Position numbers and translations under genes: made by a program | Part shown: one piece after another, positions 9,033 to 42,919 of the stretch | Layout: each line of letters starts with the position of its first letter | How positions within the stretch are numbered: position 1 is the stretch's first letter | The notes under the pieces: generated by a model | Database searches by the model: none | The model's input: the letters and a program-made list of their open reading frames with translations, nothing else | What the model was told of the DNA's origin: nothing | Assembly (NCBI GenBank): GCA_039177155.1 | Contig: JBCDFX010000001.1 | Location: 1 to 44,043 of the forward strand | Origin: Cyanobacteria bacterium P01_H01_bin.119 | GTDB taxonomy: Bacteria; Cyanobacteriota; Cyanobacteriia; Phormidesmidales; Phormidesmidaceae | Reading direction: 5' to 3' | DNA: 44,043 bases

Positions 9033-9464
9033 ATGACCTACGCCAATACCAAAACCCTACTCAAAATTTTGATCGGCACGGCTTGGATTGACGGAGAAAT
9101 TCAGCCCGAAGAACGACACCACCTAAACCGAATCGCTGCCGATGCCGAGCTAGCTGACGACGACGATATTAAAGCGCTGCTACAGGGCTCAGTAAAAGTG
9201 ACTCCCCAGCACTGCTATGGCTGGGTGCAAGCCTATCTCGGCTCCGACCCCACAGCTGATAACTGCCGTCAGCTTATGGAATCGATTAGTGCCTTGGTTT
9301 ATAGCGATGGCGTAGTGGATTTGGAAGAGGCCAAACTGCTGAATCACTTGCAAACGGTTAGCCTGGGCGGCAATACCCCGCAGTCTCAGAACTCAGAAGC
9401 CGTTGCCAAAGGTGTTATCAGCTCCTTAAGGCAGTTTTATCGCAGTTTAGTGACGCAGAAATAG
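9033..9464 (+). CDS. TerB-like (tellurite-resistance TerB fold) protein
   Basis: 143 aa. The pattern LKILIGTAWIDGEIQPEERHHLNRIA ... ALVYSDGVVDLEEAKLLNHL is the two-repeat [AD]DG.[IV]...E...L pattern of TerB-family proteins. Confidence 0.6.
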   Translation: MTYANTKTLLKILIGTAWIDGEIQPEERHHLNRIAADAELADDDDIKALLQGSVKVTPQHCYGWVQAYLGSDPTADNCRQLMESISALVYSDGVVDLEEAKLLNHLQTVSLGGNTPQSQNSEAVAKGVISSLRQFYRSLVTQK

Positions 9465-35993: not shown

Positions 35994-36452
35994 ATGGCCT
36001 CCTCAGACGCTTTCACTAACGAAGAACGGCTTGAATCTGCCAAAGTTGCACTGACGGGCGGCGGGGCGGCTGGCCTAATCGGCACGCTGTTTTTACTGCT
36101 GCATCGCATTGATGCAGTAGGGCTAAATGCTGCTCTGGCAATGGCTATGAAAGGCTTCGGGGCACAAACGTTTTGGATTAGCAGCGCGATCGCGGCCCTC
36201 TCAGGGACACTGTTTGGCCTAACCTATCGCTACGCCCTGCGGCAAGATACCAATTCCCAGCTTAAAGGCGGTGTGGTACTTGCATTTGGCTTAGTGCGAG
36301 GACTGGCCCTAGTGGATGTGGCCTCAGCGCTCTACCAGCGACTTTGGCCGTTTTTGACGGCAATTGGCGAAAGCTTACTGCTGTTTGCCGTTGTAGCCGC
36401 GCTTATCGACTGGGGCTTTAGTCAGGGATGGCTAAAACGCTTTGCCGGATAA
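35994..36452 (+). CDS. Hypothetical integral membrane protein (about 4 TM helices)
   Basis: 152 aa and hydrophobic. I recognise no family. Confidence 0.5.
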   Translation: MASSDAFTNEERLESAKVALTGGGAAGLIGTLFLLLHRIDAVGLNAALAMAMKGFGAQTFWISSAIAALSGTLFGLTYRYALRQDTNSQLKGGVVLAFGLVRGLALVDVASALYQRLWPFLTAIGESLLLFAVVAALIDWGFSQGWLKRFAG

Positions 36453-36809
36453 TCGGCAATTGTGAACCCATCACAGCAGACAAGTTTATTCAAAATACAA
36501 AGCTAATAAGCAGGTGCTCTGAATCATCCAACGTCTCGACAACGGCATTGTAAGTCTTCCGACAGCTCAGGGTTACGTTTAATTATGCTCACCTACTTAC
36601 CTGACGGCAGCAATATGCTCACCATTCAGCATACTGAGAAGACTGATCTGCTTTAGTTTTGAATTCGCAATTTTGCACTTTGAATTCCGCATGGCGGTAC
36701 TAGCTATTCAATCTTAGTCAGGGAGCTGTTGATAAACATGGCCCAAGCGATCGCTGTTGTGATGGGTGACAGCACTAACAGTAATCGTAAATCAATCAAA
36801 TCTGAGATC

Positions 36810-37508
36810 TCAAACATTGCTGCCTCCAGCATTTTGCTGTGGAACTTTCTTTAAGTGACCTAAGACAATCATTCGATTGAGCTGCGCACTTTTGTAATCG
36901 GCGTTAACCGCTAATGCCCGCTCAAACGAGCGAAGAGATTCTGGATACAGTTCTAGATTAAATAAAACATCGCCTCGATTATTCCAGGCTAGCTCTGGGC
37001 CTTCCATCCCCCAGCGTTCATCGCCCATAAGCGCCAAATCACAGGAGGCAAGTGCTTTCACGTATTGACCCAGCTTACTCAACACGCCGCATCGATTCGC
37101 TAACCCTAAAGAATATCTGGGACTAAGCATTAGCACATGGTCGTACACCTCCAACGACTCTTGATAGAGACTCAACCTAAACAGCTCGTAGCCCAAATTA
37201 TTCCAGGCCGCAATATTAAAAGGATTAGCGGATACCGACTGTTTTAGCGAGTCTAATCTGCGCTGTCTAATTAGCTTTACTCTATCTTTTATATTAGAAA
37301 AATGAGAATCATAGCTAGCGCTGATAAACTCAAGTTTTAGTGCCTCAATCTGATCTTTTGATAGACAAAAGTCCATCTCTATATGACTTAAATCATAAGA
37401 ACTAAACTGATGACAGTCTTGAACATTAGATGCATCAGCAGGGTAAGAGATTAAGCAACTAAACCCCATCAAAAGACAGGCTAAGCAGAATACCGCAACA
37501 GCTTTCAT
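36810..37508 (-). CDS. Exported TPR-repeat protein
   Basis: 232 aa. It has a signal peptide (AVFCLACLLMGFSCLISYPADA) and TPR-like units (AAWNNLGYELFRLSLYQESLEVYDHVLMLSP...). Confidence 0.6.
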   Translation of the reverse strand: MKAVAVFCLACLLMGFSCLISYPADASNVQDCHQFSSYDLSHIEMDFCLSKDQIEALKLEFISASYDSHFSNIKDRVKLIRQRRLDSLKQSVSANPFNIAAWNNLGYELFRLSLYQESLEVYDHVLMLSPRYSLGLANRCGVLSKLGQYVKALASCDLALMGDERWGMEGPELAWNNRGDVLFNLELYPESLRSFERALAVNADYKSAQLNRMIVLGHLKKVPQQNAGGSNV

Positions 37509-37553
37509 AGCCTTCTCCCAATACTTTAGCCAGAGACAAGGAATCAGAGAAAA

Positions 37554-38156
37554 TTATGGTTCAAAGGCAAATTTAATTGTCTGAATATTTTTATAGAGCA
37601 TGTTTCCCATAACATCCTTGTCAAACACGCTCAATTTCCCAAACAGCGAATCAACTGTGCTAAAGGCTACCCTAGGATCAAAATCGGAAACTTGGGAAGA
37701 AACGCTGCCAGATTGCCCAACACACGAATTAAAATCAATAAACTCAGGTATGCCGCCGTTTGATAACACCAAGACGGGCTCGGCCCCACCCGCCAGCGGT
37801 CTATCCTCGAATCCGTTGATATCAAAAACCTCTTTTCCACACAAGGTTTCTTCAGTATGTTTAGCGCCCGAATAGGGTGAAATATACTCCATCGTAAATT
37901 CAGCCCCTTCAATTTTACTTAATGGAATTGGCGCAGTTGCCCCCTGTTGACTAGGCGTATTGCGAATGGCCTGCTGTAGTGCAGAATCATCAAATACCAG
38001 CTGTCCAGTAAGGATTCCATCTTTACTGGGGTTGCCCGTCGTCTTAAATGAAAAAGTCTCTGCAAAGCTAGGCGCAGCTCCCACTGCTTGACTCAATATC
38101 AGGGCTAAAGCCAAAACAGCCAGGCACCTAACGCATCGATTAAACATATCCTTCAA
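37554..38156 (-). CDS. Hypothetical exported protein
   Basis: 200 aa with a signal peptide (CLAVLALALILSQAVGAAPSFA). Its start lies 20 nt downstream of the ho1 stop. I recognise no family. Confidence 0.55.
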   Translation of the reverse strand: MKDMFNRCVRCLAVLALALILSQAVGAAPSFAETFSFKTTGNPSKDGILTGQLVFDDSALQQAIRNTPSQQGATAPIPLSKIEGAEFTMEYISPYSGAKHTEETLCGKEVFDINGFEDRPLAGGAEPVLVLSNGGIPEFIDFNSCVGQSGSVSSQVSDFDPRVAFSTVDSLFGKLSVFDKDVMGNMLYKNIQTIKFAFEP

Positions 38157-38176
38157 TTCCTATAGTTTTGCTGATT

Positions 38177-38893
38177 CTACTCAGCCAAAGCCAGTTCTGT
38201 ACTGCCGCGAGTACGACGGCGAGTCAATGTGTTAAATAGAAGCTGTCCAACTGCTTTGATAACACTACCCTCAAGCTCTTGAAATAATTTCATATTCATT
38301 TCAAAGGCAAGATTAGCTTCATCGACGATTTTATCTATCCTATCTTCGTCAAGGGGAAGCTCATCTAAGCGCTGCCGATATAGCGTCTTAAACTCCTTTT
38401 CGTTAGCAATATCTTTAAACTCGTAGAAGGCTGTTCCGTCTCCATTAGTAAGGTTCATAGCCCGTTGAGCAATGCCCTTAAGTATTTGCCCACCCGACAG
38501 ATCTCCCATATACCGAGTGTACAAATGGGCAATCAGTAGCTCAGGTTCGGTGTCAGATAGGGTTCTAATTCGTTCAACATAAGTTTGTGTCGCTGGAGAC
38601 GCCGAAATCAGCTTTTGCCAGTCAGCGCCGTAGTAAAAATCTAGATCCTGCTCCAGACTCTCCTGCCGATTAATTAAAGGAAAGTAAATCTGGCCGAGCA
38701 CTGAATGATTTTGATGTCGATCCATCTGAGCTTCCATCTCTGAATATACAAAATAGAGATTGGAAATCAGAGTGCGGTAGGATTTCTTCTCCACAACTCC
38801 TTTAAGAAAACATCTTACAAAGCCAACGTTCTCGGCCATAGTATGCGCTTTTTTTGTTCCTTCACGCAGCTTTTTTGATAAATCAGACCCCAT
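38177..38893 (-). CDS. ho1: Heme oxygenase 1
   Basis: 238 aa. LREGTKKAHTMAENVGFVRCFLKGVVEKKSY ... YTRYMGDLSGGQILKGIAQ ... TAFYEF ... LTRRRTRGSTE closely follows cyanobacterial HO-1 as I recall it. Confidence 0.9.
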   Translation of the reverse strand: MGSDLSKKLREGTKKAHTMAENVGFVRCFLKGVVEKKSYRTLISNLYFVYSEMEAQMDRHQNHSVLGQIYFPLINRQESLEQDLDFYYGADWQKLISASPATQTYVERIRTLSDTEPELLIAHLYTRYMGDLSGGQILKGIAQRAMNLTNGDGTAFYEFKDIANEKEFKTLYRQRLDELPLDEDRIDKIVDEANLAFEMNMKLFQELEGSVIKAVGQLLFNTLTRRRTRGSTELALAE

Positions 38894-38950
38894 TAACCTG
38901 CCTCTAATCTTTAACTAAACTAATCTGAAACTCTTCGAGACTACAGCAGC

Positions 38951-39040
38951 CCGTCGAAAGGTTTGGACAAACTACAAGTCAGACTGCTTTGACACCAATT
39001 GCTCCAGCGATACCAGGTTCAGCAATCAATCTGACCGAAA
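38951..39040 (+). repeat. Intergenic hairpin repeat, copy 10 (plus orientation)
   Basis: CCGTCGAAAGGTTTGGACAAACTACAAGTCAGACTGCTTTGACACCAATTGCTCCAGCGATACCAGGTTCAGCAATCAATCTGACCGAAA. Confidence 0.7.
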
Positions 39041-39175
39041 CCATAGCTTCTTAATCTTTCGAAATCCAATTCCAATAAGAATTGAAAGGAAGCTCTTTAG
39101 ACCCTCTTAAAAAGAAGATGCAGCCCTGACGGTAGCGATATTTATCTCATAATCTATTGACTTATCAGCCACCGT

Positions 39176-39202
39176 AAAAACTAACGCTTCTTCCACAAAG
39201 CG
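39176..39202 (-). terminator. Weak candidate terminator after the psbF-like gene
   Basis: The minus strand reads CGCTT-TGTGGAAG-AAGCG followed by TTAGTTTTT. The stem is only 5 bp. An alternative 8-bp stem, TAACGCTT / AAGCGTTA, spans the stop codon. Confidence 0.3.
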
Positions 39203-39233
39203 GATATCACTCACCGGCCCTAATGTAAAAGCG

Positions 39234-39536
39234 TTAAGCCCTTATTCGCCCCAAAACCTTTTTAATTTCTTGAAACGTTGGCTTGCCAAAGTTAATAACA
39301 TTCCAAAGTATTGATATGGCCAGCGGGAGCAGCACTAATGCTACGCGTGAATCAATGCCGAACAGCTCAACACTATCAGCTAGCTGATTATCGCGCCGAA
39401 TAAATTGCATCGAGGCGATCGCGCCCAAAAACCAAACCGTTGGTACGCCCAGGGCATGAATCGATAGCCATCTAACGGTATAGATAGGATACTCAATTTC
39501 AAATTTATTGGGTTGAGTTGGTGTATCTGATGTCAT
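39234..39536 (-). CDS. psbF: Cytochrome b559 beta subunit (PsbF)-like protein with a C-terminal extension of about 55 aa that contains a second predicted TM helix
   Basis: [33 protein letters not shown] matches the whole of canonical PsbF, including the heme-ligand His. The ORF then continues: [52 protein letters not shown]. Confidence 0.75.
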
Positions 39537-39566
39537 TATTTCAATCTCTTATTAATTGCTCAAACG

Positions 39567-39848
39567 TTACTTAATAGATGGCGCCATCTGTTCAGAGCGC
39601 TGCTGAAAATAGCTGTCAAGCTGTAGCTTTGCTTCACCTCGATCAGTCACAATTGGGGCTCCCATTCGGCCAGGTAACGCATAGTACTCGTTGGGATGAG
39701 GCGTGCCAAAGGCGTCGTAGGCAAGTCCAGTACTTACAAACAGCCATCCTGATATAAACACCGCTGGGAAATTGATGATGTGCAATAACCAAAACTGTGG
39801 ATCGGTCACAATATCCGACAAAGGACGCTCTCCAGTATTACCAGCCAC
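39567..39848 (-). CDS. psbE: Cytochrome b559 alpha subunit (PsbE)-like protein, divergent C-terminus
   Basis: GTG start preceded by [61 protein letters not shown] matches PsbE, including the His ligand. The last roughly 35 aa diverge. The protein is 93 aa, against about 81-83 aa for canonical PsbE. Confidence 0.8.
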
Positions 39849-40307
39849 TTTATTTCTCCCATCAAAATTTTTTACACCTCGTATTGCTGTGGCGTTTCAC
39901 ATCACCTTGCCGCTGTTAGTAATTCCAGGCAGGCGCTTACAGAACGCAGCGATACGATGACACCAGCTTGATTTAATTGAAATTAATTGTCAACAAGTGC
40001 GAAATTAAGATATGTTAACAAGCCTGTCTTTGGCTTCCGCTCTAGCGCCTGTAATCAATGATGTGTATAGACTATACGGATTGGCTTATGGTTAACCTGC
40101 TGAGGTGCTTTAGAATTCATCAAAATTAATCGATTTATATTGAGAACTAATATCAACTAGTAATGGCAGCAGTTGATAGTGTGATCTATCTATATCTTTG
40201 TTGCAGCCTAAATCTTCGTTCTTAAAAGAACGACAGTAAAGCTAGATGGCTTGCTGAATCAGAGTTAGCGCATGCAAGCTGCGCTGGAAAAAGCGGTGCC
40301 CACAGCA

Positions 40308-40395
40308 ACCCGCTGAAAGGTTCGGGCAGCTTGCGAGTTAGATTGCTTTTGCGCCAGCAACTCCAGCGATACCGGGTAATGAAGCCTGATTAGAC
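40308..40395 (+). repeat. Intergenic hairpin repeat, copy 11 (plus orientation), abutting the stop codon of the 840-aa gene
   Basis: CCCGCTGAAAGGTTCGGGCAGCTTGCGAGTTAGATTGCTTTTGCGCCAGCAACTCCAGCGATACCGGGTAATGAAGCCTGATTAGACG. Confidence 0.75.
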
Positions 40396-40396
40396 G

Positions 40397-42919
40397 TTAA
40401 ACGATTACAAAATCAGCCGCGGAAGCATCTATCACAGCGTTCAAGATAGCCAAAATCTCATCTCCAACCCGGATGCTGTTGCCCACAAAATTGAGGCTAT
40501 CGATCTCAATATCTGAAAGTCCTATCACATCAACACCTATTTCAAAGTCTGTGATAGTGTCTGTGCCTTCACCCGAAGTCAGCACAAAAATATCCCGACC
40601 AGAGCTAGCGTTATTATCGCCTGTTAGGGTGTCATTACCCAGACCTCCTCGCAGAATATCATCACCCGCATCGCCCCAAATCCAATCATCGCCGTCTTCG
40701 CCAAACAGTTTATCATTGCCAGCTTTACCGCCTATTCGGTCATTGCCAAAGCCGCCAAAGATAACATCATTACCGCTGATGCCATCTGGGAGCAGTTCGT
40801 TAGTATCTTCGCCACGAAGAATGTCGTTGCCATCGCTACCCCAGATTTGGTCATCCCCAAGACCGCCTGTAATAATGTCATCGCCTTCTCCCCCGATAAT
40901 TTTATCGCTGCCATTTTTCCCAAATATTTGATCATCACCGGCTAGCCCATCAATAAAGTCTTCACCGGGGGTTCCCTGCAAGACATCAGCCTGTACTGAA
41001 CCAACTAAAGTCGGTACAGGTGATGGCGAATCTTGGTCGGGGGCAGGTGTTTGTGTATTCAGCAAAGCTTGCAGTGCCGCATCTGCCTGAATGAGACCAA
41101 ATCCACTGGCTGAGTCAAAACCAATATCAAAACCGGGGGTGCTGGGATCATCTAAGTCAAGCGCAGAAGATTGCAATGCCTCATAGATTTCTGTAGGCGA
41201 AGCGTCTGGTACGGCTTCCAACAGCAGTGCTGCTACGGCAGCAGCATTAGGTGCTGCAGCAGATGTTCCAAAAAAGTTAGGAAATGGATCTGGATCAGCT
41301 GCAATATCTTGACCAAAGAAAGTTGTATTTCCGCCATCTGGGGCAACGATTTCAGGTTTTTGGCGATTTTCGGGCTCAGCTAAAGCATTCCCCTCACCAT
41401 CAAATAAGATAGGGGTACCTCCGACTGCAGAAAAAGGTTCTACGCTAGGAGCCGATTGCCCAAACGCAGGAGACTCCTCAAAAAAAGCCGCTCCCACTGC
41501 TTGAGCGCCTTTAGCATTGGCTTGGCCGAACAATGTACCGCTGCTGGTATCGTATTCATCGATCGATAAATCGCCAAAGCCAACGTATTTAATCAGGGCT
41601 GGATCGTCCCCTGCAAACTTCCCGATAACGACGTTGTACTCAGTCTCAAAGAAGCTATTGTTTGTAAACTCAAGCACCTCAACAGGATCACCGTTGAGAT
41701 TGCCATCAAAGCTGGCTGCGACAACGCGATTGTTGCTATCTACTAAAAAGATATCGAGATCGCTAGTCGAACCCTGTACACCAGAAGCCGAAAAATAGGG
41801 TGATGCCCACTGAAAAGAAAGACTAATTTCAGCACCTGATTCAACCGTGATGGATTGAAAAATATCAACTTCCAATCCTGGATCAAAATCATGGGCTTCT
41901 ACTTGAAAACTACCAAAGTCCAAGAAAACACCGCTGCCTCTAAAAGCGCTTTCATATGCTGTATCGGCATTGTTGCCAGCCGCAGAAAAATAGGCCACTC
42001 CATCGGCAACAACTTGATCGACCGCTTGAGCCACAATGCCATCTTGAAAGAAAGATTCCGTGAGATAAATAACATCATCGACAATCACGTCTGCATCTGC
42101 CTGCTCAGCCAGATTTACAATCCCCTGAGCGAATCCAGCTCGCCCCAGAAAGGCCGTCTGAAAGGCCAGATCAGCGCCAGGAGCAATATCGTTGATCAGC
42201 TGAAGCATGGCTCGCCCTTCGTCCGAGCCACCACCGGGTAAATCTTGCAGTACAGTGACTTCCGGCAAATCACCGCTAATTTGGTCAAAGGCTGCTCCAC
42301 CCAGATTGTTAAAGCTATCGGAGAGGACACCAACTGTTACCCCTTCGCCGGTGACGCCAAACTCAGAACTGGCTATATCAGCTTTTAAGGCAATCTTTGC
42401 CTGATTAGTAACGGTTCCTTGCTGAACAATTGGCCTGTAGGCGGGACGCATAAACTGCATCGCATCAGATGTCGCCATTGCCATCATGGTGTCTATTGGG
42501 ATGTACCCTGACACAACGCCGCCGTACTCTCCCGTGGCCACAAAACCATGGCCATCTAACTGGCCCATGAGAGCGTCCATCTGATGGGCGGCTACAACAT
42601 CCACCATGACCATGCCATCTTCGATCTGAAAAGTGGAATTGGCGCTTTGGAAAAAATCCACAGCGGCTTCGCCAAAAATGGTTTTGTATAGAGCGTATTG
42701 CGCTGATAGAGTGCTTAAATCACCGCCCATTTTGCTCAAACTAGCTGCCTTAGAGCCATTATTTAATGTTGAGCTAGTTGTTTGAGGCGTCCTTTGATTT
42801 ATTTGCCCTAAGGTAAATCTGTTTTCTACTCGATCGGTAAGCGCTTCAGTAGCTTTTTCTAATTCTGATTCTATATGTTTTCCAATATTAAGCAGTTTTT
42901 GAATTTTATTATTAATCAC
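40397..42919 (-). CDS. Subtilase-like (S8/S53-type) peptidase with C-terminal RTX (hemolysin-type Ca-binding) repeats; probable type I secretion substrate
   Basis: 840 aa with no N-terminal signal peptide. It has [27 protein letters not shown] and the serine motif [18 protein letters not shown]. About 8 GGxGxD nonapeptides follow ([28 protein letters not shown]...). The C-terminus ends ...AADFVIV. Confidence 0.75.

Follow-up and report, generated by a model that had tools for sequence, protein, structure and literature searches.

A variant cytochrome b559 gene pair with a PsbF–PsbY fusion and a predicted Fur-type operator in cyanobacteria

The psbE2 and psbF::psbY gene pair

The first 44,043 nucleotides of contig JBCDFX010000001.1 (assembly GCA_039177155.1) of Cyanobacteria bacterium P01_H01_bin.119, the whole stretch that was analysed and is called the window here, contain a divergent pair of genes similar to psbE and psbF, the genes for the α and β subunits of cytochrome b559 of photosystem II (PSII). 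The original prediction had placed this pair at 39234–39848, and both open reading frames (ORFs) were confirmed there, on the minus strand. We refer to the first gene as psbE2 and to the second as psbF::psbY; the spacing between them is 30 bases. The features are as follows.

39567..39848, minus strand: psbE2, encoding a 93-residue variant cytochrome b559 α subunit, GTG start
39234..39536, minus strand: psbF::psbY fusion ORF, 100 residues
39393..39536, minus strand: PsbF (b559 β) domain, residues 1–48 of the fusion protein
39234..39392, minus strand: linker, PsbY-like helix, basic tail and stop codon, in the same ORF as the PsbF domain

Single-helix PsbF proteins are ~38–46 residues in size and end with ...MQFIQR; in our 64 control loci, canonical PsbF is 38–45 residues long (50 distinct sequences) and has no extension. 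Different from these, the fusion protein contains 100 residues. Its PsbF core ends at residue 48 (...MQFIRR) and is followed by 52 further residues; the second helix and the basic tail that had been predicted for this read-through were both found, whereas the predicted length of 55 residues was not correct. The fusion scored 71.2 bits against TIGR01333 (cut-off 61.15), with the b559 β match covering residues 13–48, and 49.7 bits against PF00283 (cut-off 30).

Following the PsbF core, residues 49–60 form a lumenal linker and residues 61–100 form a PsbY-like helix with a basic tail. Residues 61–93 matched the Pfam PsbY model PF06298 with 24.0 bits, exactly the gathering cut-off (E 3.6e-5), and the extension matched the NCBIfam PsbY model NF009711 with an E-value of 1.3e-4 and 21.4 bits, against a cut-off of 48. 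Precomputed PF06298 matches are present on many of the fusion homologues. Both the family profile and the isolated extension matched PsbY chains of the PDB (9t5u_R and 7n8o_R, E 1e-4 to 3e-4), with alignments that follow the pattern DxR(V/L)xxVLxPxxxxxxWxxxN(I/F)G...L. Residues P71, S75, W78, F83, G84, T87 and E90 of the extension are invariant in 31 aligned homologues. In the AlphaFold model, the fusion contains two helices, residues 18–43 and 63–99. The N-terminus of PsbF is cytoplasmic and its C-terminus lumenal; the N-terminus of PsbY is lumenal and its C-terminus cytoplasmic. Owing to these known orientations, to the acidic nature of the linker and to the net charge (+4) of the C-terminal tail, the fusion fits a two-helix hairpin. 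This topology agrees with the arrangement in canonical PSII structures, where PsbY adjoins b559 (PMC10889353). On these profile and chain matches, the extension is most probably a PsbY domain and the ORF a PsbF–PsbY fusion.

According to the original prediction, the start of the extension faintly resembled PsbL, and a PsbF–PsbL fusion was conceivable. The PsbL identity was rejected: the extension showed no PF02419 match at E ≤ 0.01, and tblastn with canonical PsbL gave no hit within 39234–39392. The prediction that psbL and psbJ do not follow the pair was borne out for the whole window, where tblastn with canonical PsbL and PsbJ found neither gene (best E 0.27).

Extended PsbF proteins and their neighbours were surveyed across cyanobacteria, as the original prediction had suggested. 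The fusion family comprises 77 clusters (90% identity) of 94–107-residue proteins, from Okeania, Leptolyngbya, Pelatocladus, Acaryochloris, Cyanothece and many marine metagenome-assembled genomes (MAGs). A scan of one genome per species identified 38 fusion loci, which share a gene module; they include Acaryochloris marina MBIC11017, Trichodesmium and Richelia MAGs, Oscillatoria CS-180 and Leptolyngbya Heron Island J. Because the fusion recurs in 77 clusters and 38 genome loci, the read-through is not due to chance or sequencing error, and the concern about a lost stop codon or a frameshift, raised with the original prediction, was excluded: the fusion is in the same frame throughout and its extension keeps invariant residues. 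A sequencing or assembly artefact, or a PsbF–PsbL fusion, is scarcely credible to us; the first impression of a faintly PsbL-like start is the one point on its side, against which stand this conservation and matches that are to PsbY and not to PsbL.

Among the 40 non-redundant loci, psbE2 and the fusion gene are each present in 38, and the two are adjacent in all loci except Pelatocladus and three loci cut by a contig end. The recurring gene order is psbE2, psbF::psbY, in some loci a heme oxygenase (HO) gene, unk200 (for an orphan secreted protein), a TPR protein gene and psbY2 (a free-standing PsbY-like gene). The fusion and this gene set are thus conserved across diverse, mostly marine cyanobacteria. 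As controls, we collected 80 canonical psbE loci of other cyanobacteria from metagenomes, with no more than 81% identity to the A. marina psbE query. In 64 of 64 controls with enough flanking sequence, psbE is followed by short psbF, psbL and psbJ.

In the genomes that allowed a check, the module is found together with a normal psbEFLJ operon: two assemblies, GCA_050043425.1 and GCA_039025635.1, contain a canonical operon of psbE (84 residues), psbF (46 residues), psbL and psbJ as well as the variant pair, on separate contigs. The pair might instead be the only b559 locus of the genome, in rearranged form, with psbL and psbJ elsewhere. The source genome is represented here by 44 kb, which leaves some room for this explanation; we nevertheless consider it very improbable. 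In addition to the two assemblies, A. marina has separate, highly expressed psbE, psbL and psbJ genes, the family is patchy (38 species representatives), the surrounding island has a foreign composition, and the pair is preceded by a repressor box not found in canonical promoters.

The copy of Pelatocladus maniniholoensis (L001, 1576-8405 and 16487-17831) differs in its setting. Here no psbE2 adjoins the fusion gene, which comes after genes for a DUF2753/TPR protein and a superoxide dismutase. Mobile-element genes flank it (a Tn3-family transposase, an integrase, other transposase fragments and a relaxase), and next to it are the Zur-type genes cobW, folE (GTP cyclohydrolase I), DUF1636 and a ThrRS paralogue. 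This setting speaks for mobility and for possible cross-talk with regulons for zinc or oxidative stress.

In the window, the GC content of 36704-40396 is 43%, compared with 51.5% for the window as a whole, and this 3.7-kb module stretch contains 2 of the 67 HIP1 sites found in the 44 kb. An AT-richer, HIP1-poor stretch next to heme oxygenase (38177..38893) was therefore predicted correctly. Because of the low GC content, the few HIP1 sites and the mobile-element genes beside the Pelatocladus copy, the operon was probably acquired horizontally.

The predicted heme pocket of the variant cytochrome

PsbE2 scored 103.4 bits against the equivalog model TIGR01332 (cut-off 93.95), matching profile positions 1–78 of 80. 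Its lumenal domain matched PF00284 with 52.4 bits (cut-off 25, E 4.4e-14, positions 1–38 of 39). The match to PF00283, the heme-binding membrane helix, reached 16.9 bits and lies under the gathering score of 30. PsbE2 had been predicted to diverge from canonical PsbE after GTPHPNEY; this was not the case. The two are alignable up to residue 80, after which PsbE2 has a C-terminal extension of ~10 residues with a conserved Ala-Pro motif. The sequences truly diverge near the heme, within the heme-side half of the membrane helix.

To compare the α subunits, 62 PsbE2-type and 61 canonical PsbE sequences were used. The two groups hardly differ in the N-terminal tail and throughout the lumenal half. 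Around the ligand His23, PsbE2 has systematic replacements at 11 positions of the cytoplasmic half of the helix. Arg18 is present in 61 of 61 canonical sequences and in none of the 62 PsbE2 sequences, which have Gln or Glu instead (Gln in the window), and position 19 is Phe in 62/62 PsbE2 and Tyr in 61/61 canonical sequences. Further substitutions found throughout the PsbE2 family are F10L, S16D, I22L, S24I/V, T26N, I27F and A33S. Arg8 is kept.

The β subunits were compared using 77 family sequences and 50 distinct canonical PsbF sequences. His24 is invariant in the family (77/77) and Arg19 is present in 76 of 77. The substitutions F16Y, A27G and F32W are fixed in the PsbF part of the family, and V23I is found in most members. 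The ligands on both subunits, His23 of PsbE2 and His24 of PsbF, are retained in these comparisons, as the original prediction had stated.

As summarized in reviews of site-directed work, α Arg8, α Arg18 and β Arg19 touch the heme propionates (PMC4709441). In T. elongatus, the α mutant R18S has altered b559 redox forms, and b559 of Y18S (equal to Tyr19, in T. elongatus numbering) is predominantly low-potential; these α mutants, like R17E of Synechocystis, are more sensitive to photoinhibition (PMC4709441). Arabidopsis plants lacking PsbY have low-potential b559 only, PsbY being required for the high-potential form (PMC9214863). In the variant, Arg18 and Tyr19 are replaced and PsbY is fused, so two known redox determinants are changed and a third is fixed in place. 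From the loss of α Arg18 and Tyr19 and the gain of β Tyr16 and Trp32, we infer that the heme pocket has moved toward lower potential. Since the lumenal domain and the N-terminal tail of PsbE2 are nearly canonical, docking into PSII fits better than a free-standing role.

The predicted operator and the other genes of the module

The predicted promoter of psbE2 consists of a −35 box (TTGACA, 39993..39988), a 17-nt spacer and a −10-like box (CAAGCT, 39970..39965). The palindrome ATTGAnAATnATTnTCAAT covers the −35 box and the spacer; the Fur-type box of the module promoter can also be written ATTGACAATnAATnTCAAT. In the whole window, two sites only matched the palindrome with 11 bits or more.

39976..39994, minus strand: proximal Fur-type 19-bp palindrome GTTGACAATTAATTTCAAT, matrix score 23.6 bits
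40139..40157, no strand assigned: distal Fur-type palindrome ATTGAGAACTAATATCAAC, 15.3 bits, intergenic, upstream of psbE2

The exact sequence TGACAATNNATNTCA occurs once in the window, compared with 0.16 expected occurrences, and the block CTTATTGACAATnAATnTCATTTAAATCAAGCT upstream of psbE2, which holds these promoter elements, is nearly invariant among loci whose proteins are 55–75% identical. Of 43 module promoters, 34 contain a palindrome of at least 14 bits; among 73 canonical psbE promoters none does, the best of them reaching 9.1 bits. Because the position-weight matrix was trained on the module promoters themselves, this contrast with the controls and the sites at other genes outweigh the raw scores. 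Such independent boxes were found upstream of a non-ribosomal peptide synthetase (NRPS) gene (L041), of a Peripla_BP_2 binding protein gene (L023), of a phycobilisome-linker paralogue and of a DUF2753/TPR gene, and in the divergent promoter between a class I aldolase gene and unk145 (four loci). In Acaryochloris, boxes are located in the divergent unk200/TPR promoter and between psbE2 and a divergent Fur-family gene.

Genes around the module encode a TonB-dependent receptor, an AraC-type regulator, ABC/FecCD permeases, ferritin, flavodoxin, Fur, an EntS-type exporter with polyketide synthase (PKS)/NRPS genes, and an IsiA/Pcb-like protein. The right half of the box is similar to the FurA consensus of Anabaena, AAATAAATTCTCAATAAAT, and in Anabaena ho1 is among the predicted FurA targets (PMC4005646); in Synechocystis, the Fur box is likewise AT-rich and palindromic around one central base (PMC8634477). 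On these sequence features, repression of the operon by a Fur-family protein is very probable, and the repressor is most likely the iron sensor.

The variant pair could also be a PSII b559 module under another Fur-family trigger, namely zinc limitation sensed by Zur or peroxide stress sensed by PerR. Boxes of the 7-1-7 type TGATAAT-n-ATTATCA are common to Fur, Zur and PerR. The Pelatocladus copy adjoins Zur-type genes, including cobW, GTP cyclohydrolase I, DUF1636 and the ThrRS paralogue, and comes after the superoxide dismutase gene, which makes Zur or PerR possible; superoxide dismutase and DUF2753 recur near the module. Most of the recurring neighbours and of the other genes with boxes are, however, iron-specific (siderophore NRPS, FecCD, TonB-dependent receptor, ferritin, flavodoxin, IsiA-like protein and class I aldolase), and we think a zinc or peroxide trigger quite unlikely.

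Three further elements were noticed around the promoters. First, the class I fructose-bisphosphate aldolase gene and the gene for an uncharacterised protein of ~145 residues (unk145) form a divergent pair near the module in 10 loci (for example L013:8029-9667, L016, L019:14869-16578 and L028), and this pair looks like a further member of the same low-metal regulon. Second, the predicted 5′ untranslated region (UTR) of psbE2 contains at 39880-39900 (minus strand, GTGAAACGCCACAGCAATACG) a block like AACGCTACAGnGAG(T/C)TTAAA, which is also found in L005, L008, L009 and L010 and gave no match in Rfam; it might act as another regulatory site or as an RNA element. Third, the motif ATTGAGAnnnTTTCCTAATAA is present ~150–200 nt upstream of the main box in L005 (~9290-9325), L017, L025, L046, L010 and L031, in the stretch that separates the module from divergent AraC-type (HTH_18) or FecCD genes. 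A siderophore-responsive regulator of the AraC type may use this motif as its operator, or the motif may be another Fur site.

Downstream of the pair, the module continues on the same strand. The original prediction did not mention the rest of this operon, its second psbY-like gene or the Fur-type operator.

39185..39202, minus strand: terminator-like hairpin, ~30 nt past the fusion gene; weak, from a consensus scan only
38177..38893, minus strand: heme oxygenase, HO-1 type, 238 residues, PF01126 E 1.2e-85
37554..38156, minus strand: unk200, orphan secreted protein, 200 residues, with a signal-peptide-like N-terminus ending in A-x-A
36810..37508, minus strand: secreted TPR protein, 232 residues, TPR_1 E 6e-16, with a signal-peptide-like N-terminus
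36704..36832, minus strand: psbY2, free-standing PsbY-like gene, 42 residues, PF06298 28.5 bits (cut-off 24), E 1.4e-6

The number of terminator-like sites in the window does not exceed the shuffled expectation, and Rfam and tRNA scans of the window gave no matches. The heme oxygenase is of the HO-1 type by score, 333 bits to Synechocystis HO-1 (1WE1) versus 256 bits to HO-2, and the identity as the micro-oxic HO-2 was ruled out. The gene is found at the same position in 6 of the 40 non-redundant loci, those closest to the window.

unk200 is located beside the module in 24 of the 40 loci, and its His100, Cys106 and Cys145 are invariant. It has no Pfam or NCBIfam match. A search of the PDB sequences with its profile gave a best E-value of 0.19, to a fatty-acid-binding protein. 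Its AlphaFold model is β-rich (pLDDT 76), for which Foldseek found nothing in the PDB below E 0.05, with TM-scores under 0.2. Among 1.84 billion protein representatives, its profile found 4 full-length relatives and a few spurious repeat proteins. Judged from these searches, unk200 is specific to the module.

The TPR protein accompanies the module in 21 of the 40 loci. psbY2 and the end of the TPR gene share 23 nt. At least 22 of the 40 loci contain a homologue of psbY2 with the motif DLRLLLVLSPITTAIAWAM, located behind the TPR gene in some and immediately behind the fusion gene in others. This leaves PsbE2, PsbF–Y and PsbY2 as the minimal core, with four membrane helices.

These four helices also enter the main rival explanation, in which the products do not act in PSII. 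PsbE2, PsbF–Y and PsbY2 would form a four-helix, heme-bridged bundle, a membrane complex that, together with unk200, the TPR protein and the heme oxygenase, holds, passes or salvages heme under iron stress. The position of the HO-1 gene inside the operon in the sub-clade of the window fits such a complex, as do the neighbouring TonB-dependent receptor, FecCD and Peripla_BP_2 genes, the invariant His and Cys of unk200 with its weak fold neighbours among ligand-binding barrels, including the heme-binding nitrobindin, and the silence of the A. marina pair when PSII is abundant. However, the nearly unchanged lumenal domain and N-terminal tail of PsbE and the two PsbY-type helices make sense only beside PSII. 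Moreover, heme oxygenase is missing from 34 of the 40 loci, the fold matches of unk200 are not significant (E > 0.05, TM < 0.2), and no heme transporter of such a build is known. We therefore consider a heme-handling complex unlikely.

Two further genes lie at the borders of the low-GC island. Directly upstream of the module, 40397-42919 (minus strand) encodes an 840-residue subtilase (S8) with RTX calcium-binding repeats, in the same island. At least six related loci (L013, L019, L028, L030, L031 and L039) also encode RTX-repeat proteins upstream of psbE2, although the likeness among them may reflect the repeats alone. At the other edge, 35994-36452 (plus strand), between the module and rsmB, encodes a 152-residue hydrophobic protein without a Pfam match, and no co-occurrence of this protein with the module was found elsewhere.

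A proposed iron-limitation variant of PSII

The reading that we put first, with confidence about evenly balanced, is that this accessory operon is induced by iron limitation and supplies PSII with a redox-retuned replacement for b559 and PsbY. When iron is scarce, a Fur-family repressor would leave the operator and the operon would be derepressed. PsbE2, PsbF–Y and PsbY2 would then replace PsbE, PsbF and PsbY in newly assembled PSII; cytochrome b559 is an early component of PSII assembly. The new PSII would contain a b559 with a lower-potential heme pocket and a permanently tethered PsbY. Such a variant would suit cells that are short of the iron-rich photosystem I and cytochrome b6f and have an over-reduced plastoquinone pool, and it may favour protective side electron flow. 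The two secreted proteins would act on the lumenal side and, in the sub-clade of the window only, the co-encoded HO-1 would recycle heme iron.

The original prediction had proposed a second b559-like module, with a role outside standard PSII or as a stress- or light-quality-specific PSII variant, and had listed low oxygen, high light, far-red light and iron limitation as conditions to compare. The coexisting psbEFLJ operons and the expression in A. marina agree with a second module, which is probably condition-specific; because of the Fur-type operator, we favour iron over light quality or low oxygen as the trigger.

A. marina encodes both members of the family, AM1_1130 (PsbE2, 90 residues) and AM1_1129 (the fusion, 99 residues). 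Under control, micro-oxic and hyperoxic conditions, RNA-seq gave 47, 21 and 33 reads for AM1_1130 and 20, 20 and 20 for AM1_1129; in the same data, 34,459 reads came from the canonical psbE gene AM1_2630 and thousands from psbL and psbJ (PMC5295598). In the PDB entries 7YMI and 7YMM, chain F is 100% identical to the 99-residue AM1_1129 (L037:10001-10300, NC_009925), and chain E is the canonical 83-residue PsbE, not AM1_1130. In the A. marina PSII-Pcb cryo-EM map of 7YMI, PsbY density was not seen (PMC10889353). Because PsbY density is absent, a covalently attached PsbY cannot be lost during purification and the gene is silent, chain F probably has a mis-assigned sequence, the short canonical psbF being unannotated and the fusion sequence used instead.

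According to its abstract, Kiss et al. 2012 reportedly found both genes at a low level under all conditions tested and proposed an α–α homodimer. Passages of the psbE expression work cite the A. marina pair as psbE1/psbF (PMC5438491, PMC4302295). Two statements on A. marina are thus affected, the α–α b559 homodimer deduced from low 'psbF' transcripts and the sequence of chain F in 7YMI/7YMM; both seem to rest on the silent fusion gene having been taken for an ordinary psbF.

Two other genes lie near the module in Acaryochloris. A 367-residue IsiA/Pcb-type (PF00421) gene is located immediately past the TPR gene (L003/L037:5213-6316), and a PsaK paralogue is located a few kb from the module (L003:13243-13503). 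The same stress island may thus hold other variant photosystem parts.

Several observations weigh against an iron-controlled replacement of b559. The A. marina pair is silent in every reported condition, none of which is low iron, and the chain F entry of 7YMI is more likely a mis-assignment than support. The direction of the redox shift is an extrapolation from point mutants. The Fur-type box does not separate Fur from Zur or PerR, it was scored with a matrix derived from the module promoters, and the Pelatocladus copy lies beside the Zur-type genes cobW, folE and DUF1636 and a superoxide dismutase gene. The heme oxygenase gene is present in just 6 of 40 loci, and the view of the source genome is confined to the window.

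More tentatively, the module may be a horizontally mobile 'iron-limitation PSII' cassette that follows the logic of the far-red-light clusters: upon Fur derepression, b559 and PsbY would be exchanged for a heme-retuned set in which one PsbY is covalently tethered and a second PsbY-like helix is added, and two orphan lumenal proteins would join. Paralogous photosystem subunits that are swapped in under one environmental signal are known from far-red light photoacclimation (FaRLiP) and from the isiA family. Different from FaRLiP, the signal of the module is apparently metal and not light, and only the b559/PsbY corner would be exchanged.

Compared with the canonical complex, the module keeps both ligand His residues, α Arg8, β Arg19, the PsbE lumenal domain and the PsbF helix. 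It differs in joining PsbF and PsbY in one polypeptide, in an additional PsbY-like gene and in the absence of psbL and psbJ. Arg18 and Tyr19 of the α subunit are replaced in every member, the β subunit has Tyr16 and Trp32, and PsbE carries a C-terminal extension. A Fur-type operator precedes the module genes (0/73 for canonical promoters), and they are located in low-iron islands with two orphan secreted proteins.

The locus of A. marina AM1_1130/AM1_1129 (UniProt B0C2V2) belongs to the same family and has unk200, TPR, Fur and IsiA/Pcb-like genes nearby, as well as Fur-type boxes; different from the window, it has no HO gene, and unk200 and the TPR gene are divergently transcribed. The literature treats AM1_1129 as an ordinary psbF, and the papers that we found do not describe the fusion, the operon or the iron link.

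Two further types of long or additional PsbF were considered. Like the fusion gene, psbF2 of Synechococcus sp. PCC 7335 is a second psbF outside psbEFLJ, and PsbF2 is present in purified PSII (PMC8689208). It was rejected as the same thing, being a recent plain duplicate, 75% identical to PsbF1 and normal in length, which has no PsbY domain and is encoded in a psbO–nblA–psbV operon without a partner psbE (PMC8689208). The NCBIfam models 'cytochrome b559 subunit beta, long form' (NF002717 and NF002720) also describe a PsbF of ~97 residues. Their PsbF core occupies profile positions 57–95, so the extension is N-terminal; the fusion scored 48.9 bits versus 153 and 41.6 versus 127, aligning only with the C-terminal PsbF core, and membership was rejected. 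The PsbY polyprotein of plants likewise supplies two PsbY-type helices together from one precursor; in the module, PsbY is fused to PsbF and not to another PsbY.

The original prediction had left room for extended PsbF proteins being annotated already. Databases do hold such proteins, but each name covers one half of the fusion: 'cytochrome b559 subunit beta' at NCBI and 'Photosystem II (reaction center) protein Y' in UniProt and the PDB. In the literature searched, we found no description of a PsbF–PsbY fusion, of a second b559, of the operon or of an iron link.

The module is not a new kind of system, and yet it would surprise PSII specialists. What b559 does in the cell, and what its high- and low-potential forms are for, has long been an open question of photosynthesis research. 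Here is a natural, conserved variant at the redox determinants known from site-directed work, with PsbY attached and under apparent iron control, and it opens specific experiments in culturable strains such as Acaryochloris marina. If the cassette proposal is true, nature has already made the α Arg18/Tyr19 'mutants' that were used to probe b559 function. The module would also bring a PSII component into the list of low-iron substitutions in marine cyanobacteria.

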